Source of the DNA: Eubacterium sp. CAG:841
GTDB lineage: Bacteria > Bacillota > Clostridia > Oscillospirales > CAG-272
Reading direction: 5' to 3'
DNA: 63,634 nt
NCBI GenBank assembly: GCA_000437375.1
Contig: FR898229.1
Location: forward strand, 45,697-109,330
Positions 5,312 through 24,033 of the stretch are shown here, in pieces. The position numbers and the translations under genes are program-made. The notes beneath the pieces were generated by a model. It did no database searches. It had not been told where the DNA came from and saw nothing but the letters and a program-made list of their open reading frames with translations. The stretch's first letter is position 1, and every line of letters begins with the position of its first letter.

Positions 5312-6228
5312 CTCTCTTTACCTCTCTTTTTAATTTCTTTTGGTTTGAAAGTGCTGTCGCTTATATCCGCTTTGAAGCCCTCGCCTATAGTTTCCGTCGA
5401 ATCTCCGAGAACTATGAACGCATGCGGATCTATAGATTTTGCTATGGATTTGAGTAAAAATATTTCGTTTTTCTTCACCACGCAAAATACTATTTTCTTT
5501 TTTTCCTTTGTGTACCAACCCTCGCCGTCTATAAGCGTAACGCCTCTGCCCGCTTTTTCTGATATGGCAGAAGCTATCCTGTCGTATTCCGATGAGAATA
5601 TAAACGCCATTTTGGATTTTTCAAATCCGCCCGTGACTATTTCTATCGTAAGCGATGAAACGAGCACAGAAACAAGCGAATAAAATACCGAAAGGAAATT
5701 TTTCATAACTATCGCCGCACCGATGATAACAACGGCGTCAACTGCGGCAATAAGCTTTGCCGTCGATATATTTTTGGCTTTCAGCTTTATAAGCAGCGCG
5801 ACAAAGTCGGAGCCGCCGGTAGTAAATCCCCTGTAAAGCATAATTCCTATCGCCGCACCGAGCGTAAGTCCGCCGAATATCGCACACAGAAAAGCGTTTT
5901 CCTTAGGTTGCGGAAAAGCTGCCGGCAGAAATTTTATAAAATCTATGGCAAGCGATGTCACCGTTATCCCTATAAAGCTTTTTATTCCCGATCCGTAACC
6001 GTAAAACACACAAAAAAGAAGTGCCAGCGGAACGTTTATTGCTATTATCATAAGACCTGTGGGAAGTCCGAACAAAATGTTCAGCATTTCGGCAACGCCT
6101 CCGGCACCACCTATGAATATCTCTCCCGGTAAAAAGAACATATTGTAAGATACGGCAAAAAGAAATCCGCTCAGTATAAGTGCCCCCGCGTCAAGAAGAA
6201 GTTCCTGTAGCTTTTTGCTTTTTTTCAT
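5308..6228 (-). CDS. YitT-family membrane protein (DUF2179 C-terminal domain)
   Basis: 'SYNMFFLPGEIFIGGAGGVAEML' and the overall 5-TM + soluble C-domain layout fit the family. Start taken at the ATG at 6228 (MKKSKK), 9 nt after GGGAGGA. Confidence 0.75.
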   Translation of the reverse strand: MKKSKKLQELLLDAGALILSGFLFAVSYNMFFLPGEIFIGGAGGVAEMLNILFGLPTGLMIIAINVPLALLFCVFYGYGSGIKSFIGITVTSLAIDFIKFLPAAFPQPKENAFLCAIFGGLTLGAAIGIMLYRGFTTGGSDFVALLIKLKAKNISTAKLIAAVDAVVIIGAAIVMKNFLSVFYSLVSVLVSSLTIEIVTGGFEKSKMAFIFSSEYDRIASAISEKAGRGVTLIDGEGWYTKEKKKIVFCVVKKNEIFLLKSIAKSIDPHAFIVLGDSTETIGEGFKADISDSTFKPKEIKKRGKER

Positions 6229-6328
6229 CCATACGTTTCCTCCCATAAGTATTTTTTCTTATTTCACCGAATAGATTATATTGTCCGCATATTATTATAC
6301 ACGTAGTTTGGGAGAAAAACAACACTTT

Positions 6329-7876
6329 ATGTCCAGATTAAGCAAATTCGTAAAAAACGCACTGCTTTTAGGCGCAGTTTCTGTATTTATGAGAACAGTA
6401 AGCGTTGTATTCAACGCTTACATCGCCTCTCGCATAGGCGCGGGCGGAATGGGATTGTTCTCGCTTATAATGAGCGTTTATGTCTTCTCCGTAACGCTTG
6501 CAGGTTCGGGAATAAATCTTGCCGTAACGCGCCTTGTAGCCGAATCCATTGCAAAAAACTGCGACAGCGGAATAATCGGCGCGGTTAAAAAGTGTGTGCT
6601 TTATGCGCTGTGCTTCGGCGGAGGAGCGGCAATTCTTCTTTTTGCTTTTTCGGGAATACTCGCCGAAAAAGCAGTAGGCGAAGAAAACGTCGCAATGTGT
6701 TTTCGTGCGCTCGCGGCAGCGCTGCCGTTCATAGCCGTATCAAACGTTTTTTCGGGATATTTTTATGCCGTAAGGCGCTCGGCAAAGAGCGCCCTTTCGG
6801 GAGTTTTCGAGCAGTTTATAAAAATAGCCGTAACTGTGCTTTTCCTGAAAAAGCTTTGCCCGCTCGGCACAGAATACGCCTGTCTTGCGCTCGTTCTCGG
6901 AATGAGCATTTCGGAGGGACTTTCGTTTACCTATCTGCTTGCTTTTTACCTTGCCGACAGGAAAAAACATCTCCGCCCGTCCGCGCTCGAATGTGTTCCG
7001 CACGACACGACCCGCAAAATGATATCGATCGCCCTGCCGATAATGCTTTCCTCGTGTCTGCGTTCGGGGCTTGTGACGGTGGAACATATGCTTATCCCAA
7101 GAGGACTTGAAAGATACGGCGCCGACAGAACCGCCTCGCTTTCGGCATACGGAACGGTTTCCGGAATGGCGATGCCCGTTCTGCTGTTTCCGTCGGCTTT
7201 GTGCGCCGTGTTTTCCTCGCTTATAATTCCGGAACTTTCGGAGCTTTCCGCCAGATCGGAAAAGATAAAAAACGATACCGAGATATGCTATATGGTGCGC
7301 CGCGCATGCGGAGCCGCACTTCTCTTCGGAATAGGCACGGCAGGAATATTCGTCTGCTTTTCACAACCGCTCGGTCAGCTTGTTTATAAAAGCTCCGACG
7401 CCGCAAAATATATAGGAATTCTTGCTCCGCTCGTACCGCTGATGTATTTCGATATGACTGTGGACGGCATGCTGAAAGGACTCGGGCAACAGCTTTACTG
7501 CATGCGCGTAAATATTCTTGATGCCGCCGTAAGCATACTTTTAATATCCGTTCTCCTGCCCAAATACGGAATAACGGGATATATCACCTGTATATACATA
7601 ACCGAAACCATGAACGTCGCCCTTTCGTCGGGCAGACTTTTTTACATAACGGGTGCAAAATTTATGATCTTCAAAAGAATCTTTATGCCGCTCTTTTGTA
7701 TAGCCGGTGCCTGCTCGGTTTCAACTCTGCTTTTGCTTCCGGAAAAAGCTCCCGGAAAGACCTCCGTCGCCGGTATGATAATATCCGCTGCTCTTTATAT
7801 GTTTTTTCTGCTTGCCACATCCACCCTTTCCGGCGAAGACGCCGCATGGATAAAGAAACTTACCCGTATGCGATAA
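6329..7876 (+). CDS. spoVB: MOP-superfamily flippase, stage V sporulation protein B-like
   Basis: Polytopic protein of about 515 aa. The N-terminal 'RIGAGGMGLFSLIMSVY...GINLAVTRLVAE' resembles SpoVB/MurJ-type flippases. Confidence 0.65.
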   Translation: MSRLSKFVKNALLLGAVSVFMRTVSVVFNAYIASRIGAGGMGLFSLIMSVYVFSVTLAGSGINLAVTRLVAESIAKNCDSGIIGAVKKCVLYALCFGGGAAILLFAFSGILAEKAVGEENVAMCFRALAAALPFIAVSNVFSGYFYAVRRSAKSALSGVFEQFIKIAVTVLFLKKLCPLGTEYACLALVLGMSISEGLSFTYLLAFYLADRKKHLRPSALECVPHDTTRKMISIALPIMLSSCLRSGLVTVEHMLIPRGLERYGADRTASLSAYGTVSGMAMPVLLFPSALCAVFSSLIIPELSELSARSEKIKNDTEICYMVRRACGAALLFGIGTAGIFVCFSQPLGQLVYKSSDAAKYIGILAPLVPLMYFDMTVDGMLKGLGQQLYCMRVNILDAAVSILLISVLLPKYGITGYITCIYITETMNVALSSGRLFYITGAKFMIFKRIFMPLFCIAGACSVSTLLLLPEKAPGKTSVAGMIISAALYMFFLLATSTLSGEDAAWIKKLTRMR

Positions 7877-11209: not shown

Positions 11210-11238
11210 TTGACAAATTTGTTTTTGTGTGATAATAT
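11210..11238 (+). promoter_or_regulatory. Sigma-A type promoter for tRNA-Lys
   Basis: TTGACA, a 17-nt spacer, then TAATAT preceded by TGn. The tRNA 5' end lies about 20 nt downstream. Confidence 0.6.
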
Positions 11239-11257: not shown

Positions 11258-11330
11258 GCCCCATTAGCTCAGAAGGTAGAGCACATGACTTTTAATCATG
11301 GTGTCCGGAGTTCGACTCTCCGATGGAGAC
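11258..11330 (+). tRNA. tRNA-Lys (anticodon UUU), 3' part supplied by the integrated element (attL)
   Basis: Hand-folded cloverleaf. D arm is GCTC/GAGC. Anticodon arm is CATGA-CTTTTAA-TCATG. T arm is CGGAG-TTCGACT-CTCCG. The acceptor GCCCCAT/ATGGAGA has 2 mismatches, and no CCA is encoded at this copy. Confidence 0.85.
11289..11328 (+). repeat. attL core: 40-bp direct repeat (tRNA-Lys positions 32-71)
   Basis: CTTTTAATCATGGTGTCCGGAGTTCGACTCTCCGATGGAG is identical to 19215-19254. Confidence 0.95.
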
Positions 11331-11355
11331 GGGCATTTTTACAGCGCAGAAAAAA

Positions 11356-12246
11356 TCATGGTGTCCGCTTTTTGCCTATCGAATTATCAAGCGGACTGTA
11401 TTCATCGAAGTTACGAAGGACATAAGCCGGCGCGAAATGAACGTAATGCTCAACCATCTGCAAAGATGTATGACCGAGTATGGTCTTCAGTGTGAGCATA
11501 TCGCCGGAATTGACGAGATAGCCGGTAGCAAACGTGTGCCGGAGCAGATGAGCGTGCAGACGTTCGATTCCGGTGATCTTCTTGAGCTTGCGGAACATAT
11601 TCTTGAGAGTATCGACAGTGACGGCGGATCCGTCAGCCTTGAGGAACACCTGCGGCAGATCTGACTGCGGTCTGATCTGCAGGTAAGCCTGCAGCCGTTC
11701 GGCTGCCAGAGCGCCGATAGGAACATAGCGCTGCTTGTTACCCTTGCCGGTTACGAGAGCATAGCCTTCGGCAAGGTGCAGGCAGCTTGTCCGGAGCGTT
11801 ATGACCTCTTCTCTGCGAAGTCCGCTTCCGAGCATAAGCGATAGCATGGCAGCGTTGCGCTTGCCTTCAAAGCTGTCGGGAAGCGCGGCAAACAGCTTTT
11901 CTATCTCTGCCGGAGTGAGAACGTCCTTTACGGTCGCTCTCGCTTTCGGCAGTCTGAGCTGCGTCGGAATACATTCCTTAACGCAGCCGTTATTATAAAG
12001 CCAATTCAGAAAGGCACGGAGTGCGCGGACATGATCCTGAACGGTCACGCTGTTCTTGCTTTCGTCCTCAGTCAGAGCGATGACATATTCACGACAGAGC
12101 CGAAGCGTTATCTTCCCGCACTCTATATTGCCGACAAAGGCTATAAAGCCGTCTATCGTCTGTCGGTAGTAGGTTATAGTGTGCGGCGAGGATCCTCGAC
12201 ACTTATGGTCAAGGATATAATCATCAAATGCGTTCTTTATCGTCAT
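11356..12246 (-). CDS. int: Tyrosine recombinase / phage integrase
   Basis: C-terminal catalytic motifs 'HLLRHTFAT' and 'LGHTSLQMVEHY' are present, plus an N-terminal SAM-like domain. The gene is adjacent to attL. Confidence 0.9.
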   Translation of the reverse strand: MTIKNAFDDYILDHKCRGSSPHTITYYRQTIDGFIAFVGNIECGKITLRLCREYVIALTEDESKNSVTVQDHVRALRAFLNWLYNNGCVKECIPTQLRLPKARATVKDVLTPAEIEKLFAALPDSFEGKRNAAMLSLMLGSGLRREEVITLRTSCLHLAEGYALVTGKGNKQRYVPIGALAAERLQAYLQIRPQSDLPQVFLKADGSAVTVDTLKNMFRKLKKITGIERLHAHLLRHTFATGYLVNSGDMLTLKTILGHTSLQMVEHYVHFAPAYVLRNFDEYSPLDNSIGKKRTP

Positions 12247-13106
12247 CTTCCAACCTCTGCGACTGCGTATCGCCGGAACATAAGATCCTGCTTAAGATCC
12301 GAAACATTGCCGGTGTACTCTGTCAGATCGAATACCTGCAGAGCTTCATCGAGCGAACGATATCGCTTGACGGCGAGATAGTCGTTTTCATAGTCCGGAA
12401 AAAATGCGTCTCTTATGCGTTCCTCGCGAATAATGAATTCGGCGCGCTTCAGACCTTTTGAGCAGTAATATAAATGCGCTCCAAGCTCTTTTATACTCTT
12501 TGCAAGATTTTTGCTTATGTATTTCATTACATAATTTGAAGCGGCTTCTTTGCTTCTTACAGGCTCGAGGATCGTATAGCCGAACTTGTCCGCAAACTGG
12601 ATCCAATTGAATACTTCTTGTCCCTCTCTGAGCTTATCGACTATATACTTCGGCAATTTATTCGGAAACTGAATTCTGAACGCTTCATATTCTCTCTCTG
12701 AAAGTCCTTTGATAAAGCCGTGCATGTGCCAGGCTCCGTCCTGATGTTGCTCCGGCACTAACATGTACTTGATCTGTAAGCCGTGATTATGATTGTAGTC
12801 CTTTATGAACCTTGCAAGATCCTTGCGGAATTTTTCAAGATTGTATCTGTCATACTTCTTTGGTGAAAGCGTGAGCGTTACGAAGAACTGCCAATCGTTA
12901 CACATTGCAAGCTCGAAGATCGTGCTTCTTGCCCTTGAAATGTTGTTTTCAAGCTTTTCGTCGTTTACGTTTTCCTCTTGTTTTTCCCTGTCCGGAAACT
13001 CAAAAACTTTGTCAGTTTTATACACAACGAGGCGGTAATATCCGTCCGTATATTTCTTGATTTCTGCGAAATTACTGTAAAAGTGCCGATTATCCTTGCG
13101 GTACAT
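12243..13106 (-). CDS. HUH-superfamily rolling-circle replication initiator (Rep)
   Basis: Motif I is 'FFVTLTL', motif II (HUH) is 'WHMHGFI' and motif III is 'NYVMKYISK' with the catalytic Tyr. The stop overlaps the int start (ATGA). Confidence 0.75.
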   Translation of the reverse strand: MYRKDNRHFYSNFAEIKKYTDGYYRLVVYKTDKVFEFPDREKQEENVNDEKLENNISRARSTIFELAMCNDWQFFVTLTLSPKKYDRYNLEKFRKDLARFIKDYNHNHGLQIKYMLVPEQHQDGAWHMHGFIKGLSEREYEAFRIQFPNKLPKYIVDKLREGQEVFNWIQFADKFGYTILEPVRSKEAASNYVMKYISKNLAKSIKELGAHLYYCSKGLKRAEFIIREERIRDAFFPDYENDYLAVKRYRSLDEALQVFDLTEYTGNVSDLKQDLMFRRYAVAEVGR

Positions 13107-13192
13107 AGGTTTTTGCCCCCTTGAAAGTGTTGAATAACGCGAAAAATGATACTAAGTCAAGTTTAGTCTTTATATATTATTAGATCTAATTT

Positions 13193-13291
13193 CGCGTGCG
13201 CACACGCGCACACGCACGCGAGGAGCTTTTATTGCAATTCTGTCGGCACTGCCGGGAGTGCCGGAGAGGGGGCTGCGCTCCCCCTCTCCGG
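13193..13291. promoter_or_regulatory. Candidate replication origin / packaging-signal region of the element
   Basis: There is a 28-nt perfectly alternating pyrimidine-purine tract (13193-13220). Two GC-rich hairpins follow: CGGCACT/AGTGCCG at 13244-13263 and a 12-bp stem CCGGAGAGGGGG/CCCCCTCTCCGG at 13261-13291. Confidence 0.4.
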
Positions 13292-14140
13292 ACTCTCCCA
13301 GGAAGCTTGCCCGAACATGTCCCGTTTGCACTCTTTGCGGACATCGAGAATGTATCTCGTCTTAAGCTTGTCCCACTTCCACCGGTCAGGTACGTCATGA
13401 GTGAAGCCAAGATCATATGCTTCGCTGTAAACCTTACTGTCGTAACGTTTTGTATATGGCATCCAAAAGAAGTAGGTGTTGAAGTCGTCCTTGCCTACGT
13501 CCTTTATGTTGACTATGTCGTTTGTGACGGAGATCTCTCTCCATTTCACCTTGCCAAAAGGCAGGAACAGACAGCGGTGAAGTCCGCGAAGCTCTATCAG
13601 AGCGTTGAAACGGCCTCTGATAGGCTTTGCTATGAAGTCTGAAGCCTGTTCGGTGAAATAGCAGTGTCCCGGTATCTCTGTGTCCATCCACTGCCTGTCA
13701 AAACGTATACTGACCTGCACGTTGTTTTTTACAGCAGGGATATCGAACTTATACTGATCACAGATCTGACCTACCTCGTCGATAAAGGTAATCGAATTTC
13801 TGTCTTTGAGCTTCTCGGCGAAAAGATGTTCCGTTGTCAGCACGTCTGACATTCTTTTGTTTCTGCGGTTGCCGAGCCTGATCGGTATGTTACTGTAAAC
13901 GTGCGGCTTGCTCTTTCTTTTGTCCTTTCGGAAAGGATGAAAGAAGCAGCTTCGGCGGTACACCGCATAGGCTTTCTTATACCATTTCACGACATGCATA
14001 ACTGCCATATAGGTCTTGCCGGATCCGAGTCCGCCGATAAAACAGGTGAGGTACTCCTGCGGTATCGGCTTGCTCAGGATGATCGAAACGACAAGCCAGA
14101 CTATGAACACGCCGGCGATTATTATCAATGCGGCTTTCAT
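13229..14140 (-). CDS. Zot/pI-like P-loop ATPase (filamentous-phage assembly protein)
   Basis: Walker A is 'GGLGSGKTY' and Walker B is 'ITFIDEVGQ'. The size and position downstream of the coat genes match inovirus gene I. It has an N-terminal TM helix. Confidence 0.65.
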   Translation of the reverse strand: MKAALIIIAGVFIVWLVVSIILSKPIPQEYLTCFIGGLGSGKTYMAVMHVVKWYKKAYAVYRRSCFFHPFRKDKRKSKPHVYSNIPIRLGNRRNKRMSDVLTTEHLFAEKLKDRNSITFIDEVGQICDQYKFDIPAVKNNVQVSIRFDRQWMDTEIPGHCYFTEQASDFIAKPIRGRFNALIELRGLHRCLFLPFGKVKWREISVTNDIVNIKDVGKDDFNTYFFWMPYTKRYDSKVYSEAYDLGFTHDVPDRWKWDKLKTRYILDVRKECKRDMFGQASWESPERGSAAPSPALPAVPTELQ

Positions 14141-14694
14141 CAGTAGCTGTACACCTCGCCTTCATAGATGTGGCGGATCTTCAAACGCTCGAAATAGTTG
14201 TGCAGAAACAACTTGTTTTCGTCAGATATACCGTAAGACTCGGCAGCGTCCTCAAGATTGTACATAAGGAACGACAGGTGCTGATAGCTCCAAGCAGAGT
14301 TCGGATCGTCCAAGAAGGCTTTGAAGCTCTTAAGGTTGAACTTTGTCCAAGTCTTCTTGAGGAAACTGTAATTTGCATTTATGTAGGCAAGCGAACTATC
14401 GTAAATCGCTTGGATCTTGGTAAGGTCATCTTCCGTTTGCTGTTCCGTTGAGAACGGCGAAAAAAGATTGTAAACGCTTGCAACGACTTTGTTTAACACA
14501 TTGGTAACATTGCCGCCGAACTTTATCACGCGGGCAAAGCTCATGCTGAGAAGCCCGGCATTTATATCACGGCATTCCGTAAGGTCAAGCTGCGGAGAAG
14601 TGGCATCGAACGTGTAATCATAGGAGGAAGCAAAGCCGAACAATACGGCAAGAATCACGCAACCTATAAGGAAAAAACAAAGCGCTTTATTCAT
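14140..14694 (-). CDS. Element-encoded membrane-anchored protein (pVI-position, unknown function)
   Basis: Start at the ATG at 14694 (MNKALCFFLIGCVILAVLFGF). One N-terminal TM segment. The stop overlaps the Zot start (TGATG). Confidence 0.55.
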   Translation of the reverse strand: MNKALCFFLIGCVILAVLFGFASSYDYTFDATSPQLDLTECRDINAGLLSMSFARVIKFGGNVTNVLNKVVASVYNLFSPFSTEQQTEDDLTKIQAIYDSSLAYINANYSFLKKTWTKFNLKSFKAFLDDPNSAWSYQHLSFLMYNLEDAAESYGISDENKLFLHNYFERLKIRHIYEGEVYSY

Positions 14695-14699
14695 AAAGA

Positions 14700-17024
14700 T
14701 CAACCGCCTTTCGAAACTTTCAGTATAATGATCACCGCACCGCCGATAGCTATAATGCCGATTATCGTAAGCAGCGTAACGCCGCCTACGGAAATGTTGG
14801 ATCCTACATAAAGCGCCGAGCCGGTGAACGCGCCGAGTATTTTTGTAACAAAATCGGCAACGCCGGAATCTGACGATTTATTTTTCTGATAATTTATGCC
14901 GGCTTGCTTGCCGGCTGTAAAACTTACGTCGTCATATGTATCGTTATCATTATCCACGACGTGGATCAGGCTGCAGGCTCCGGATCCGTTGCCTGCGGTA
15001 TAGCCGGCTGAATATGCCGAATCGTCATAGCCGTCGTTATTCTTATCCACGACGTGCGTGTCAAGGCAGACATCTATCTGTATTGTGTTACTGTATTTAT
15101 CGCCACTGTCGGTCGTTTCTACAAGTCTGAACTGTACCCACTTGCTGTTATGGGCTTTCTCGTAATTCCAATCATAACTGTCTATTTCCCAAAAGCCGTC
15201 CGTATAATCAGTAGAATTTGGAAGAGGCGTCCAACCGTCGTCTGTCAGATAGTCCTGATACGTCATATACTCTATATACACGGAGTTGCTGTCTTTTATT
15301 TTTCTCCAAGAAAGCTGTCCTTGCGAGTACGAAAGCAACGGCGATGCTGTGGAAGCTGTTGCAGCTCCACTGTTATACCCTGCTGTATAACTTGAGTCGT
15401 CATAGCCGTCGTTATTTGTGTCCGTAACGTGTGTTTTGTCACAAGCTCCGGCGGCAAGCGCAGCCTGATATTCAGCTTCGGTGTAATAGCGTATTGTCGG
15501 CATTGTATAGCCTGTCAATACTTGTTTGCTTTTAGAGCATATTATATCGTCGCAAGAATATATAAAATCCCCCCATGTATCAGGAGCATAAGGCGAAATT
15601 ACAGAAAGCGTACCGTTGCCATCGGTTGTATCATACAGACACAAAAAACTCTGTGATCCGGATGAAGTCGAACCGGATGAATCGGTCGTATACGAAAAGC
15701 AAACGCGAACAGTGACAAAAAACTTTTCGGGAGTATAAAAAGACCAACCAGTAACTGTATCAATGCTTGAACCAACCGGCGTAGTATTATCATAATTCTT
15801 TTTATCTGTTATATTAAAGAACGGCGCCAAGTCGGTAATCCTATTCGGTTGAATATCTTCAACAGGCGAAGTGTGCGAAAGCGAATAAACATCATAAACG
15901 CCGACACCGTTATTCTCATCAACATAAAACCGCCCGTAGCTTTTTGCAGAAGTGGATTTTACACTAAAATACGGAAAAGCGTTTTGCGTTATTTGTTGCA
16001 GTCCACTTGACTTCTCTATTTTGCAATAATCGAAATATGTAGCATCGCTATTTACCAAGAGCAGATGATAATAAGTATCATCGATAAAAATGCGAGAAGT
16101 TTTATAGATATAATAATCGTCAAAGTATTCATAACAAGGCAGATTAGAAACTTTGGTATATGAATTCAAATAGATTGTGGAAGTAGTGGACGAAGTGTTG
16201 GAAGAAAACGCATTGATAATAGCCGACATAGGCACCGAATAAGTATAAAGAGAGCTGGTTTTATGATAAGAAGTTGAATAACCATACTTTGAAGAGCTGT
16301 AATCAACTCCGTAAAAATACAAGCAAGAGTTATAATAAACAACGTCATTTACACCGAAATAGTATGATTTACCGGAAGTATGCTTCACATATATAATGTC
16401 ACGAGCCAAAGTAGTATCACCGACATGATAACGACCTATATAAAGAGTATCTTCGTCATAATCAAAATCCATTGAGACAAAGTAATAATAATCACCGTAT
16501 TTGAAAGAATAGTTTAAGTCGTTATACCAAGCGCCAGGGAAAAAGCTTGAAGTTCTTGTATATAAATTCAAGTTGGAAAGATTTTCGGGAGTTTCGGCAA
16601 GAGTAAGACGACCGCCAAGCACATATGAAGAAGACATCGAAGTAAAATAATATTTTGTTGTGGATGAAGAAGGGTATGAAGAACCAGCAGAATTAACTTG
16701 TGTAATCCCTATTGTGTGTTCTCCTGTGGTAAGCTTGTCGCAATACGCAAGTGTTCCTACGTATTCGGAAACAGGACCGACAATATCAACTTTGAAATTG
16801 TTTCCGACAATCTCGCCGTCAACTGTAAAATACAAACCAATACAAGAGCTATCCCAAGCCGTAACCTTTGCGGTAAGCTGTCCGTTTTGAGGAATAAATT
16901 CATATGAAACAGCCGTAGAAATAGGCTCTGATACCGCCGAAACCGTCAGACTGCCGGCTACGGTCAGAGCGAGGACAAGCACGGCGGTGATAAGCGCCGC
17001 AACCCTTTTATTTTTCTTTGACAT
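14700..17024 (-). CDS. Large secreted, C-terminally anchored protein (pIII-like adsorption/minor coat candidate)
   Basis: The ATG at 17024 sits 8 nt after GGAGG. It has a signal peptide 'VAALITAVLVLALTVAGSLTVSA' and a C-terminal TM 'VTLLTIIGIIAIGGAVIIIL' followed by KVSKGG. Three 'HV.D.NNDGYDD' repeats are present. Confidence 0.65.
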   Translation of the reverse strand: MSKKNKRVAALITAVLVLALTVAGSLTVSAVSEPISTAVSYEFIPQNGQLTAKVTAWDSSCIGLYFTVDGEIVGNNFKVDIVGPVSEYVGTLAYCDKLTTGEHTIGITQVNSAGSSYPSSSTTKYYFTSMSSSYVLGGRLTLAETPENLSNLNLYTRTSSFFPGAWYNDLNYSFKYGDYYYFVSMDFDYDEDTLYIGRYHVGDTTLARDIIYVKHTSGKSYYFGVNDVVYYNSCLYFYGVDYSSSKYGYSTSYHKTSSLYTYSVPMSAIINAFSSNTSSTTSTIYLNSYTKVSNLPCYEYFDDYYIYKTSRIFIDDTYYHLLLVNSDATYFDYCKIEKSSGLQQITQNAFPYFSVKSTSAKSYGRFYVDENNGVGVYDVYSLSHTSPVEDIQPNRITDLAPFFNITDKKNYDNTTPVGSSIDTVTGWSFYTPEKFFVTVRVCFSYTTDSSGSTSSGSQSFLCLYDTTDGNGTLSVISPYAPDTWGDFIYSCDDIICSKSKQVLTGYTMPTIRYYTEAEYQAALAAGACDKTHVTDTNNDGYDDSSYTAGYNSGAATASTASPLLSYSQGQLSWRKIKDSNSVYIEYMTYQDYLTDDGWTPLPNSTDYTDGFWEIDSYDWNYEKAHNSKWVQFRLVETTDSGDKYSNTIQIDVCLDTHVVDKNNDGYDDSAYSAGYTAGNGSGACSLIHVVDNDNDTYDDVSFTAGKQAGINYQKNKSSDSGVADFVTKILGAFTGSALYVGSNISVGGVTLLTIIGIIAIGGAVIIILKVSKGG

Positions 17025-17184
17025 GCAAAACACCTCCAAGCATTGATATAAGGAGCAGGATTATCGCAAGCGACATCCCATAGGTAAGAAGCTCCACTAC
17101 ATTTATACGCGCCATTACCTTTACGGCTGACGTCGCAATGTGCAGCGGAAGATCTACAAACAAAATTTTAAGCACGTTCATCAT
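17008..17184 (-). CDS. Small hydrophobic protein (minor coat candidate)
   Basis: 58 aa counted from the ATG at 17184, which overlaps the upstream stop (ATGA). It has one clear TM segment, 'GMSLAIILLLISMLGGV'. Confidence 0.45.
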   Translation of the reverse strand: MMNVLKILFVDLPLHIATSAVKVMARINVVELLTYGMSLAIILLLISMLGGVLHVKEK

Positions 17185-17486
17185 CGCCTTTTTGTCACCA
17201 CCCATACCACAAGGAATATAGGCAGGAACACCACAAGCGATGTTGTTGCCATTGTAAACAGCACGATAAGACTTGAATTGTCCCTGATAACGTCTGCCGG
17301 GAAGATATACGCCCAGCAGTCATAGATTATGCTGTATATATTGCTCGTCAGATCTGTCTCTGTCTCCGTCGCTTCGGCTGCCGTTTCTATCGGTTCGGAC
17401 ACATCCGTTCCACCGTCTGCGGCATATGCCGGAACACACATCAGAGCGAGGATCAGAACTGCGACAAGCGCCGTTTTTATTTTCAT
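17181..17486 (-). CDS. Coat-like protein: signal peptide, acidic N-terminus, TM, basic C-terminus (major coat candidate)
   Basis: Signal peptide 'MKIKTALVAVLILALMCVPAYA|ADGG'. The mature N-terminus is acidic and the C-terminus is 'VVFLPIFLVVWVVTKRR'. AGGAGG RBS. Confidence 0.6.
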   Translation of the reverse strand: MKIKTALVAVLILALMCVPAYAADGGTDVSEPIETAAEATETETDLTSNIYSIIYDCWAYIFPADVIRDNSSLIVLFTMATTSLVVFLPIFLVVWVVTKRR

Positions 17487-17506
17487 AATTACCTCCTGTT
17501 AGAACA

Positions 17507-17528
17507 AAAGCCCCGTTTCCGGGGCTTT
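17507..17528 (-). terminator. Intra-operon rho-independent terminator after the 183-aa coat-like gene
   Basis: On the minus strand: AAAGCCCCGGAAACGGGGCTTTTGTTCT. Confidence 0.65.
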
Positions 17529-17545
17529 ATTTGTTTTGATTTTTA

Positions 17546-18094
17546 TCAGCCTACTCTTGCACGTGACTTGATCCACTTCCATATGCCGAAGCCGGCACCG
17601 AGTATGATCGCAGTTATGATGAGTACGCCGAGTATTGAAAGCTCACCGGTATCCTTGTTGATAAAGATTACGTCGAATGTGCTTACTGCCGCGCCTGCTA
17701 CGGACGGAACGAACGATCCTACTCCGTCGCCGACTTCCGTCAGAATCTGCTTTATGAAGCCGTCTCCGGCTACCTGAAGCGAGATCATTGTGGAAGGTGC
17801 GCTCTTTGTGTAAGATGTAGCATTGCTTGCCGGCTTTGCTACTACCGTGACAAAGTATGTTCCGGATTTTACAAGATATCCGGAAAGGTCGACCGACGTG
17901 CCGGTTACCGTTGCTATAAGCGTATCGCCGGAATAAACGTCGTATGAAGCCGCATTTTCTACGGTCGTCCATGAAAGCGTTTTATCCGTAAGCGTTACGG
18001 TGGGTGCGGTAAGTGCAGACGCTGCGCTTACGCCGAGTATGGCAAAGCTGCAGATAACGAATGCGCAAAGGATAATTGCGAAAATCTTTTTCAT
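17546..18094 (-). CDS. Secreted Fn3/Ig-like domain protein with a pVIII-like C-terminal TM + basic tail
   Basis: The ATG at 18094 follows AAAGGAGG. Signal peptide 'MKKIFAIILCAFVICSFAILGVSAASA'. An 'LSWTTVENAASYDVY' Fn3-like module is present. The C-terminus is 'ILGVLIITAIILGAGFGIWKWIKSRARVG'. Confidence 0.65.
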   Translation of the reverse strand: MKKIFAIILCAFVICSFAILGVSAASALTAPTVTLTDKTLSWTTVENAASYDVYSGDTLIATVTGTSVDLSGYLVKSGTYFVTVVAKPASNATSYTKSAPSTMISLQVAGDGFIKQILTEVGDGVGSFVPSVAGAAVSTFDVIFINKDTGELSILGVLIITAIILGAGFGIWKWIKSRARVG

Positions 18095-18146
18095 TGAATT
18101 AACCTCCTTTCCTCGTTTGTTTATGTTAATTTCACGTGAAATCATA

Positions 18147-18437
18147 TTATGCCTTCTCCTTTCCCGGAAGAAGTCTGACTGCCGTAAGCTTCGGCTCTCT
18201 TACTCCGAACACCTGATATACAAGCTCGATCTCCTGATTGAGAAGATCCGAAAAGTTTTTTGTGCCTATAAGCGATTCTTCTTTGAAAGGCACCTTGACA
18301 GTGTCACAGAAAAATCCGTTTACCTCCGGCACTTCATTTGTGAAGACGTACAACTCTACGTTATCATACGTTACCTTGCGTCCGTCCTCCGATACGAAGT
18401 CGCCTTTCTTTCTTCTCCATCCCATTACTTTTATCAT
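18147..18437 (-). CDS. First gene of the structural operon, unknown function (gV-position; ssDNA-binding protein is only a positional guess)
   Basis: 96-aa soluble ORF with ATG and an AAGGA RBS. It lies directly upstream of the coat-like genes. Confidence 0.5.
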   Translation of the reverse strand: MIKVMGWRRKKGDFVSEDGRKVTYDNVELYVFTNEVPEVNGFFCDTVKVPFKEESLIGTKNFSDLLNQEIELVYQVFGVREPKLTAVRLLPGKEKA

Positions 18438-18492
18438 TGCTTTTCCTTTCTACCCGTGCGTTATGCTTTCGGGATTTTGTGTGTTATGATTT

Positions 18493-18566
18493 ATGACCTA
18501 TCGGTCATATCTGATATAATCATATTACTAATCAGTCATAATGTCAATATAATCTATCGGTCATAT
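18493..18566. promoter_or_regulatory. Divergent promoter/operator region of the element
   Basis: The 13-bp direct repeat CTATCGGTCATAT occurs at 18498-18510 and 18554-18566. The first copy lies within the palindrome ATGACC-N4-GGTCAT. On the plus strand there is TGATATAAT (18512-18520). On the minus strand there is TTGACA (18548-18543), an 18-nt spacer, then TATGAT. Confidence 0.5.
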
Positions 18567-18607
18567 GATAAAATTATTAGAATTAACAAAAACGGAGGAC
18601 GTTTATT

Positions 18608-18835
18608 GTGTACTATTACCAAAGATTGAAAGATTTAAGAGATGATGCGCACCTCAGACAAGATCAAATAGCGGTTATATTGAAAACTTGCCAGGAGCAG
18701 TACAGCAAGTACGAAAGAGGGGTGCAAGAGCTTCCCATGCATCACTTTATTACTCTTGCCAAGTTCTACAACGTATCGCTTGACTACCTTGCCGGACTTA
18801 TAGACGAGCCGCGCAAGCTGCACGATGAGAAATAA
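18608..18835 (+). CDS. XRE-family HTH regulator (prophage repressor candidate)
   Basis: GTG start 8 nt after GGAGG. 'QDQIAVILKTCQEQYSKYERG' is a typical Cro/CI HTH. It is divergent from the structural operon. Confidence 0.8.
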   Translation: MYYYQRLKDLRDDAHLRQDQIAVILKTCQEQYSKYERGVQELPMHHFITLAKFYNVSLDYLAGLIDEPRKLHDEK

Positions 18836-18865
18836 AAAAAGCGAAACGGAAGTTCCGTTTCGTTG
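18834..18865. terminator. Stem-loop after the repressor gene
   Basis: An A-run is followed by CGAAACGGAA/TTCCGTTTCG, a 10-bp inverted repeat with a minimal loop. The downstream T-run is weak. Confidence 0.45.
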
Positions 18866-19214
18866 GCCCGTGACCGGCTCTCTCCGGCGCACGCTCTGCG
18901 GAGCTTAGCTTCTCGATTCACTACAACCGCTACGGCGGGATTCTGAACGATCTGCGGATCGGGATAGTTCAAAGCAAAGCCAATTTACTCTGTTCAACAG
19001 GTCTTATCTCCATCTTGGGCGGGCGAACCTTATCGGCGGTTCTCCCTTGCCATCCCTCTCCCTCCGAGAACGCGATAACATTTGTGCCGATTTGAAGCGA
19101 ATACACGCGCTCTAAGCGTATTTTAAGACATAATCAAGCTGATTTGACATCCGATTAAGAAAGGGAGGCTTGTGGGGCTTCTAAACCCTCTGCGCCGACG
19201 GAAGCAAATTCAGG

Positions 19215-19254
19215 CTTTTAATCATGGTGTCCGGAGTTCGACTCTCCGATGGAG
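19215..19254 (+). repeat. attR core: 40-bp direct repeat, followed by the native tRNA 3' end (C-ACCA)
   Basis: Identical to 11289-11328. It continues as ...ATGGAG-CACCA and then a terminator. There is no tRNA 5' half upstream. Confidence 0.95.
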
Positions 19255-19258
19255 CACC

Positions 19259-19296
19259 AAAAAACCTCGCCCTTGTAAGGCGAGGTTTTTTATTTT
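19259..19296 (+). terminator. Native tRNA-Lys terminator
   Basis: Stem CCTCGCC/GGCGAGG with a 7-nt loop, followed by TTTTTTATTTT. Confidence 0.75.
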
Positions 19297-19345
19297 CCCG
19301 TACGGATAAAAACCCGGACGGGATTTTTTTGTTTAAATGCTTTTA

Positions 19346-19627
19346 TTACGGGGTAAACTGTGAAACAAGCTCTTTCAGTTCGGCTATTGCCTCACGCATG
19401 ATGTCACATTGACTGCCCAATTTCAAAATTTGCCTTTTCATATCTTGCAACACTTCATCTGCAGGCCAAGCTTTTTTCTGTTCCTCGGCAAAAGTCTCCG
19501 GAAGTTCCGCTTTGTCCAATCCAAGCATAGCAAGATCGACGTTAAGTCCGATAAAAAGTCCCATTATAGTCTGATCGGTTTCGTCGATTTCTGCAAAAAG
19601 TTTTTCAATTTCTTCTTTAATCTTCAT
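19346..19627 (-). CDS. Hypothetical protein (acidic, helical)
   Basis: 93-aa ORF, divergent from the XRE gene. No recognisable motif. Confidence 0.5.
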   Translation of the reverse strand: MKIKEEIEKLFAEIDETDQTIMGLFIGLNVDLAMLGLDKAELPETFAEEQKKAWPADEVLQDMKRQILKLGSQCDIMREAIAELKELVSQFTP

Positions 19628-19768
19628 ATAAGAATGCCTGCTTTACATATTTATGGTCTTATTATAACATACATAAATACGTAAATCAAGTACATACGAA
19701 CGTATGAATGATATAATTTTTCAAAATGTACGCAATTTATGCGGGAAGCGGTGAAAAGGAGCGGCTTT

Positions 19769-19996
19769 ATGCACTGTTATCAAAGGTTGCGCGACTTAAG
19801 GGAAGACAAGGATTTAAGTCAGGGAAAAATTTCACAGCTTTTGAAAATATCTCAGCAGCACTACTCAATGTATGAAATGGGCAAGCGTGAGCTTCCGATG
19901 CATCATTTCGTTACCCTTGCAAAATTCTATAACGTATCGCTTGATTATCTTGCGGGACTTACAAACGAGCCGCGCGAGCTTTATAAAGACGAGTAA
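19769..19996 (+). CDS. XRE-family HTH regulator, paralog of the prophage repressor
   Basis: The ATG at 19769 follows AAAGGAG. By manual alignment, 47 of 75 positions are identical to the 18608-18835 product. The C-terminal halves are nearly identical. Confidence 0.8.
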   Translation: MHCYQRLRDLREDKDLSQGKISQLLKISQQHYSMYEMGKRELPMHHFVTLAKFYNVSLDYLAGLTNEPRELYKDE

Positions 19997-20023
19997 AATC
20001 GCAGCGCTTATGCATTGCGATTT

Positions 20024-23858: not shown

Positions 23859-23865
23859 GTACAGT

Positions 23866-23895
23866 AAAAAGCACCCTCGCAAAGGGTGCTTTTTT
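23866..23895 (+). terminator. Rho-independent terminator after pnp
   Basis: Stem GCACCCT/AGGGTGC with a 5-nt loop, then TTTTTT. Confidence 0.8.
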
Positions 23896-24033
23896 CAGTT
23901 GAGAGACAAAAGAAAAAATGTATATAAAATATTAAATTTTCGGGTTATGTATTGCAAAAAACGGAAAATCGGTATAAAATATAAATTGCAGAAATTTGAA
24001 TTGCCGCATTTGCGGCAGGAAAGGATTTTATAA

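Follow-up and report, generated by a model that had tools for sequence, protein, structure and literature searches.

The window that we analysed, a stretch of 63.6 kb (63,634 nucleotides) of contig FR898229.1 from Eubacterium sp. CAG:841, carries between positions 11289 and 19254 a small element that is very probably a temperate inovirus (Tubulavirales) of an uncultured Clostridia bacterium of the human gut, equipped with its own Xer-like integrase and seated in the 3' half of a gene for tRNA-Lys(UUU). The identification rests on the combination of a G2P-type replication initiator (Rep), a pI-like ATPase linked to the Zot family, a block of coat-like proteins, an RstR-like repressor, and a size of about 8 kb. 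Nine minus-strand genes form one block (from p96 to int), opposed by one divergent helix-turn-helix (HTH) gene. Comparison with other assemblies of the same species shows a clean insertion that is polymorphic in the population.

The insertion site in tRNA-Lys(UUU)

An exact 40-bp sequence, CTTTTAATCATGGTGTCCGGAGTTCGACTCTCCGATGGAG, occurs twice on the plus strand of the window, at 11289-11328 (attL) and at 19215-19254 (attR), the two copies being 7926 bp apart; no third match is present in the window even when three mismatches are allowed (0 expected from 100 shuffles). These are the coordinates given in an earlier note on this DNA, and an exact search agrees with all of them. The left copy lies in the sole tRNA gene of the window (11258-11330, plus strand; found by ARAGORN and as Rfam RF00005) and begins on the 5' side of the anticodon loop to reach as far as tRNA position 71, so that the gene consists of a host 5' half and an element-supplied 3' half. 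The earlier note had spoken of a complete tRNA-Lys: the repeat does lie within tRNA-Lys(UUU), but the 3' end of this tRNA is damaged and incomplete in the window copy. The repeat length of 40 bp likewise holds for the window; it is 52 bp in other copies, the difference reflecting a private deletion (discussed further below). At the right copy no tRNA is called and no tRNA 5' half stands upstream; the sequence runs on into the displaced native tRNA 3' end (CACCA) and the host terminator (19255-19292, plus strand; inverted repeat I7), the same sequence that follows the tRNA in all empty sites. This terminator, a hairpin with a perfect 13-bp stem (19259-19291), bears out the strong terminator noticed earlier; sub-threshold Rfam matches at attR (rnk leader, OrzO-P, Thr leader) were set aside as terminator look-alikes. 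The tRNA gene has a predicted promoter at 11210-11238 on the plus strand (TTGACA-17-TAATAT with a TG extension, 10/12 in a consensus scan), which is kept in empty and occupied sites alike.

The acceptor stem of the native tRNA-Lys(UUU) (11258-11264 with 11323-11329) contains a C3:A70 mismatch in every strain, empty or occupied (L001-L012), and also in the sister species L016. In L018, a relative that occupies a tRNA-Lys as well, the targeted tRNA has a fully paired acceptor stem (GATCCAT/ATGGATC).

To compare the locus, public assemblies were searched for the exact protein of the GH130 gene in the right flank, which yielded 24 long contigs of the same species with host flanks 99.1-99.7% identical to the window. 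The site is empty in 22 of them (represented by seven displayed loci), as the earlier note had predicted for relatives without the insert, and its refuting case, in which all related strains would carry the interval, is thereby excluded. In the empty loci the 93-aa (amino acid) open reading frame (ORF), the tRNA and an M23 peptidase gene are directly adjacent, and the sequence reads tRNA 5' half, core, CACCAAAAAACC and host terminator, matching base for base the left side of attL in the window joined to the right side of attR; attB is the tRNA plus CACCAAAAAACCTCGCCC. The element stands at the same site in two of the 24 contigs (L006 and L007). The exact pI protein of the window was found in six further loci, L010-L015: the long contigs L010-L012 carry the element at the same tRNA-Lys site, and the element-sized Logan contigs L013-L015 have ends that fall inside the repeat.

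Because the empty sites equal attL-left plus attR-right, they support site-specific integration into the tRNA 3' end, as originally proposed, and so do the adjoining integrase and the tRNA-anchored repeats of related elements. Four relatives, with pI identities from 94 down to 30%, are bounded by repeats of 48-100 bp that start in a tRNA anticodon loop: in tRNA-Lys in L016 (repeat 52 bp, spacing 8,106 bp) and L018 (52 bp; 7,518 bp), in tRNA-Ser(GGA) in L021 (100 bp; 6,527 bp), and in tRNA-Pro(GGG) in L024 (48 bp; 6,947 bp). Integrase identity tracks the target tRNA: elements in tRNA-Lys reach 53%, those in tRNA-Ser and tRNA-Pro about 23%. The phage attP duplicates the tRNA sequence from its anticodon loop to CCA and, in intact copies, adds seven bases and a phage-borne terminator. 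With this 3' part supplied by attP, integration reconstitutes the tRNA at attL, and the native 3' end is pushed out to attR.

Gene complement and immunity modules

The gene that ends 27 nt from attL, as the earlier note had it (11356-12246, minus strand), encodes a Xer-like tyrosine integrase of 296 aa with a SAM-like N-domain and without an arm-binding domain; it matches PF00589 (E 1e-34) and phrog_1, and its matches to the NCBIfam XerC, XerA and XerD models fall below their cut-offs. The next gene (12243-13106, minus strand) encodes a rolling-circle replication initiator of 287 aa that matches phrog_3419 and PF23343 (REP_ORF2-G2P, the initiator family of inoviruses and plectroviruses; E 1.6e-12, 48 bits against a cut-off of 27.8), with the HUH motif in the form HMH at residues 127-129 and a YVMKY motif at 192-196. 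Between Rep and pI lies an intergenic GC-rich imperfect palindrome (13107-13228), a candidate origin to judge by its sequence.

The third gene (13229-14140, minus strand) encodes the pI/Zot-like morphogenesis ATPase of 303 aa, with a membrane helix at residues 1-28 and a Walker A motif GGLGSGKT at 36-43. Homologues found at E 1e-31 to 1e-43 carry the Zot domain PF05707; the AlphaFold2 model (mean predicted local distance difference test score, pLDDT, 78.7) finds its best PDB fold match in entry 2R2A, the N-domain of a Neisseria Zot (E 5e-6); the best named matches in BFVD are Zot proteins of Inoviridae (E 1e-9); and all tblastn matches (23-27% identity) fall on Zot genes of the bajarodino viruses, which are circular Inoviridae. 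Sequence chaining through homologues, the fold and tblastn together place this P-loop protein in the Zot/pI clade. A profile search of PDB sequences gave a match to the signal recognition particle receptor alone, rejected as spurious and driven by the transmembrane (TM) segment and the P-loop. The sole hydrophobic segment of the protein is N-terminal and precedes Walker A, whereas canonical pI and Zot proteins have their membrane helix after the ATPase domain.

Five proteins encoded on the minus strand between pI and the promoter (p187, p779, p65, p101, and p199) have a signal peptide and/or a single TM segment with a basic tail. The first, p187 (187 aa, 14140-14703), is by hydropathy a membrane protein with an N-terminal TM segment, pVI-like in position and perhaps in role, and is conserved in L016-L018 and L021. 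The largest, p779 (779 aa, 14700-17039), has a signal peptide and a C-terminal TM segment and may be a pIII-like adsorption protein; it is the most variable gene of the element (the ratio of nonsynonymous to synonymous substitution rates, dN/dS, is 0.16-0.33), relatives conserving its C-terminus only. A single-TM protein of 65 aa, p65 (17008-17205; TM at 34-64), is minor-coat-like and conserved in L016-L018. The candidate major coat is p101 (101 aa, 17181-17486), which combines a signal peptide, an acidic N-terminal part, a TM segment and a basic tail (TKRR), and whose C-terminal half is conserved as far as L021. A second coat-like protein, p199 (199 aa, 17546-18145), has a signal peptide, an extracellular domain, a C-terminal TM segment and a basic tail, as judged from hydropathy; its C-terminus is conserved in relatives, and it matches phrog_7440 weakly. 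The coat-like proteins, p779 included, gave no family match in scans of Pfam, PHROG and NCBIfam, and the same scans gave none for p96 (96 aa, 18147-18437, minus strand), the soluble and predicted all-beta product of the first operon gene, a putative single-stranded DNA (ssDNA)-binding protein by position, with four close homologues. Two alleles of p96 are present in the population (100% versus 68.8% amino acid identity among the window, L006, L007 and L012), in elements that are elsewhere 97-99% identical, and they assort independently of repressor type.

The divergent gene (18608-18835, plus strand) encodes an XRE/RstR-like repressor of 75 aa (PF01381/PF12844) that scores 42 bits against the NCBIfam phage_RstR model, under its cut-off of 80. 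The 170-bp region between it and p96 (18438-18607) holds the minus-strand promoter of the phage operon, TTGACA (18547-18542)-17-TATGAT (18524-18519), which matches the consensus at 11 of 12 positions, and three operators (18492-18509, 18523-18540, and 18548-18565) of the motif TATDAYY-WATC-RGTCATA: one downstream of the -10 box, one over the promoter spacer and one upstream of the -35 box. Within the window the motif is confined to this region (0.07 matches expected). Copies of the element that are otherwise 96-99% identical differ in their repressor allele and, along with it, in their operators, each repressor having a triplet of its own. Four repressor/operator alleles occur in the population: the window and L006 have an identical repressor and the same operators; L007 has a repressor 52% identical, with operators of the type AACACC-N6-GGTGTT; L012 has one 76% identical, with AAATCC-N6-GGATTT; and L011 has two HTH genes with TAAACA-N7-TGTTTA. 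The swapped module begins at one constant position in the leader, and its other boundary lies within the conserved repressor C-terminus. The way in which repressor and operators vary together gives good support to the assignment of repressor to operators and for variants that would be heteroimmune. Beyond the repressor gene extends the non-coding, attR-proximal arm of attP (18836-19214); just within the attR end, at 18862-18842, lies a terminator on the minus strand that could keep transcription from the host gene for the 93-aa protein out of the phage operon.

A chromosomal XRE gene, XRE85 (19739-19996, plus strand), stands beside attB in every strain, empty sites included, paired divergently with the 93-aa ORF (19346-19627, minus strand). 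Its protein is 63% identical to the phage repressor, with a conserved C-terminus common to both, and it may be a domesticated or relic immunity gene. One palindrome (19693-19706) lies upstream of XRE85, and a triple-operator layout is absent there. We considered the host flank at 19255-20023 as the relic of an older copy and rejected this: the 93-aa protein is unrelated to p96, and past the 52-bp repeat the DNA resembles the element in terminator T-runs only, which leaves the 63% XRE paralogy alone.

Taken together, these parts suggest the following life cycle. In the lysogen the RstR-like repressor would bind the three palindromic operators that bracket the promoter and keep the nine-gene operon silent. 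Upon derepression the integrase would recombine attL with attR to release a circle of about 7.9 kb, which the HUH Rep would nick for rolling-circle synthesis of ssDNA. The ssDNA, coated perhaps by p96, would be extruded through the membrane by the N-anchored Zot/pI-like ATPase and would collect the membrane-inserted coat proteins p101, p65, p199, p187 and p779 on its way. The host flank genes (AddA-type helicase, DarA, YitT, RqcH/FbpA, and a DltB-like protein), together with related loci in Clostridiales and Clostridia bacteria, indicate a monoderm gut Clostridia host, and with a single membrane to cross a secretin would be unnecessary.

Circulation, rival explanations and the attL deletion

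Several results weigh against a functional inovirus. The pI protein has no direct Pfam Zot match and reaches the PHROG Zot family at E 1e-3 only, and its fold match to 2R2A is modest (TM-score 0.47-0.49 normalised to 2R2A). The putative ssDNA-binding role of p96 is unsupported by its model (pLDDT 50). Neither the candidate origin (13100-13235; z -0.81) nor the region in which a packaging-signal hairpin was sought (18836-19214; z -0.29) folds as ssDNA any better than shuffled sequence, and Pfam, PHROG and NCBIfam recognise no excisionase in the element. The attP junction would read GCAAATTCAGG + core + CACCAAAAAACCGCC, or + ACGGGC for the deleted copy: the pattern of attR-left plus core had 0 matches in IMG/VR, the 52-bp type of junction had 0 in JGI metagenome contigs, and neither collection gave a circular contig of this element. 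Finally, the attL deletion of the window copy may impair its excision. The Logan contigs L013-L015 were examined as possible circles and rejected: their ends are the outermost 31-mers unique to the element, where the assembly graph breaks at the 52-bp repeat. A relative with 46% pI identity, L031, does show a 30-nt (k-1) terminal overlap and closes in the order integrase, terminator, tRNA-Ser(GGA) 3' part and repressor side, which is the expected attP anatomy; its cut coincides with the att boundary, and the closure is therefore suggestive only.

A fixed, defective prophage remnant that neither excises nor forms particles, with repeats that are scars of an old integration, would agree with the missing attP or circular form in IMG/VR and JGI contigs, with the unrecognised excisionase and with the loss of 40 bp of attL (part of the reconstituted tRNA and P'-side DNA) from the window copy. 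We consider such a remnant quite improbable, given how the element behaves across the population. Only two of the 24 conspecific contigs carry it, and the empty sites are precise. Every copy, across more than ten assemblies, has its ORFs at full length, and dN/dS among copies amounts to 0.11-0.20 overall, staying under 0.35 in each gene that has accumulated enough changes, the integrase among them (0.09-0.23). Element copies differ by 2-3.6% and their host flanks by 0.3-0.9%, a four- to eightfold excess which, together with the different immunity modules, implies repeated independent acquisitions. Taken together, these features fit a circulating phage rather than one old insertion. The deletion, moreover, is private to one assembly; a recent lock-in is possible for the window copy alone.

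Still less probable, to the point of being very improbable, is an integrative element that is not a virus, either an integrated plasmid of the rolling-circle type or a mobilisable island with membrane proteins, which would spread as DNA without making filamentous virions. Rep and integrase by themselves would suit an integrative plasmid replicating by the rolling circle, and the coat-like proteins lack family matches just as pI lacks a direct Pfam Zot match. Against this stand the place of the P-loop protein in the Zot/pI clade, the RstR-like repressor, and the block of proteins with signal peptides, TM segments and basic tails beside pI, which is an inovirus signature (Roux 2019, PMC6813254). 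Nor do Pfam and PHROG reveal a relaxase, coupling protein or conjugation gene among the ORFs of the element; secretin and holin/endolysin genes are absent by the same scans.

In all 11 other sequenced attL junctions (L006, L007, L010-L012, L016 and L026, plus the ends of L013-L015 and L027) the att repeat is 52 bp long (core + CACCAAAAAACC), and intact attL copies continue from it into an element-borne terminator, GCCTATACGGCGG-T7. The restored tRNA of L006, L007, L010-L012, L016 and L026 has CACCA and this terminator and scores 64.8 bits with RF00005. With all other copies built in this way, the phage normally restores the full tRNA 3' end. In the window, as alignment to L006/L007 shows, gCACCAAAAAACC and the element-borne terminator GCCTATACGGCGG-T7 are lost at a junction at 11327-11329, and GATGGAG is followed by ACGGGC where the others read CACCA. 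The resulting tRNA has a G1:A72 mismatch and a C where the A73 discriminator should stand, and it lacks both an encoded CCA and a terminator. Its score is 52.6 bits, that of the intact attL tRNA in L010 being 64.8 bits, and Rfam marks its 1:72 and 3:70 pairs as non-canonical. The loss of tRNA positions 72-76 and of the phage-borne terminator probably weakens this tRNA, and if the deletion is real, the tRNA promoter (11210-11238) would probably read antisense into int, to judge from the layout, with the insulating terminator gone.

These 40 bp are the sole difference between the window and L010 (GCA_900525305.1) over some 20.9 kb (100% identity over 8,060 + 12,813 bp), and contigs L026 and L027 of the human-gut run ERR209578 likewise match the window at 100% outside these 40 bp and have attL intact. 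That the repeat or the 40-bp difference is an assembly artefact has a negligible chance in our judgement: the near-perfect identity to L010, L026 and L027 leaves room for an origin of the window in one sample with them, or in a nearly identical one, a hairpin lies in the deleted segment, and the deletion junction matches no other contig among the JGI metagenome contigs, but more than ten independent assemblies, made with different assemblers, show the insertion with its repeats, which makes the element real. The deletion endpoints share about 2 nt (GA) and the hairpin arms measure about 11 nt, both too short for a k-mer (de Bruijn) mis-join, and the deletion is therefore more likely real, arisen in vivo or present as a minority variant, than an artefact.

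Relatives, known filamentous phages and significance

Searched against 1.84 billion representatives, a profile of the pI protein retrieved 511 clusters (at 50% identity), of which 353 reached E <= 1e-10. Nearly all are 270-340 aa long and aligned from the N-terminus, which makes a short, N-anchored pI typical of the clade, and among the 150 best of the 511 clusters almost every one has the architecture with an N-terminal helix. Relatives of pI are present in nine species-representative genomes, with no Enterocloster genome among them, and a conserved-peptide scan of IMG/VR retrieved none. The structural genes are shared among the relatives. Replication and integration genes are less constant: L030, L031 and L032 (pI identity 46-55%) have a Rep_trans (PF02486) initiator in place of the G2P type, and L030 further has a DDE (rve) integrase in place of the tyrosine integrase and a gene order permuted with respect to the prophage. 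Such gene comparisons indicate that relatives exchange replication and integration modules, a shuffling already described for inoviruses.

The contig of L016 (CAVKJG010000002.1) is labelled Sphaerochaetaceae bacterium, yet its flanks are 88-91% identical to the window; as the gene content of the window is Bacillota/Clostridia-like, this is probably a mislabelled or misbinned contig of a metagenome-assembled genome. In L008 an extra three-gene insert, which is not in the window or the other strains, lies between the aldolase and PNPase genes (6001-7123 of that locus, corresponding to about 23860-24030 of the window) and encodes a 195-aa protein, an HTH_17 protein of 54 aa and an XRE protein of 87 aa.

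Inovirus prophages with a tyrosine integrase and direct repeats in a tRNA number 582 in isolate genomes, those with repeats in a tRNA or beside the integrase span many phyla, and short single-TM proteins near pI served as a detection criterion in the same survey, which also cites filamentous particles in Clostridium (Roux 2019, PMC6813254). Our element shares with these inoviruses the pI-like ATPase, the short single-TM neighbours, the small genome and the integrase with tRNA repeats; it differs in its pI, which is short (303 aa), has an N-terminal helix and is missed by the Pfam Zot model. Closer in host are the prophages of gut Enterocloster and Hungatella, which measure 6.5-8.5 kb, are flanked by repeats, encode a pI/Zot homologue alongside 10-16 ORFs, and are secreted in vitro and in vivo (Burckhardt 2023, PMC10061712); the main text of that paper has no mention of a tRNA target or an integrase. 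Gut Clostridia hosts, prophage size, the pI/Zot homologue and flanking direct repeats are common to both, while the host of our element belongs to a different, uncultured lineage. The element is of the same kind as the inoviruses already described, in a different uncultured lineage of Clostridia.

CTXphi has no integrase and uses the host XerCD at dif. The element resembles it in its divergent small HTH repressor of RstR-family type (sub-threshold here), its swappable module of repressor and operators, and its Zot-type ATPase; it differs in its own tyrosine integrase, tRNA target, monoderm host and lack of a secretin, and with its own integrase and tRNA target it is not CTXphi-like in integration. 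The apparent swapping of immunity modules is analogous to that of rstR/ig-2 in CTXphi. Propionibacterium phage B5 and Clostridium phage CAK1 are small filamentous ssDNA phages of monoderm hosts without a secretin gene; neither showed a DNA or protein match to the element in the GenBank phage collection, where the bajarodino viruses alone were matched. These viruses (PQ006120-PQ006181; circular genomes of 4.7-7.7 kb from rodent faeces), for which a literature search found no paper, are the closest deposited phage genomes. Their Zot-annotated pI aligns over 79-89% of the protein, and some have a homologous Rep and also a repressor; they are nevertheless very distant, deposited as free circles, and without an annotated integrase in the two records inspected.

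The site itself falls in the anticodon-loop class of tRNA integration sites, which Williams reportedly described in 2002: the block of identity extends from the 5' side of the anticodon loop through the tRNA 3' end, by which the element restores the tRNA gene. This geometry is classical for tRNA integration, and the one unusual feature is the 40 bp that the window copy has privately lost from the restored 3' end.

That tyrosine integrases insert elements into tRNA genes and that Clostridia harbour inovirus prophages was already established, and current concepts remain unchanged. What is gained are the exact borders, the attB, the population frequency, and the regulatory anatomy of a filamentous prophage of an uncultured Clostridia species of the human gut; filamentous phages of gut commensals are little studied, though those of Enterocloster are secreted in vivo. 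A broader proposal is that the element stands for an uncatalogued clade of Clostridia inoviruses which Zot models miss, with swappable immunity and integrase/tRNA modules, and that the window copy has just been deleted toward lock-in; we put it forward tentatively and regard it, as a whole, as rather unlikely. The short, N-anchored pI missed by standard Zot models suggests that profile-based detection under-counts this clade. If true, the attL deletion would mark a natural beginning of prophage lock-in, made at the cost of a tRNA gene, and near-identical copies with four different repressor/operator modules offer a ready system in which to study heteroimmunity among inoviruses of Gram-positive bacteria.

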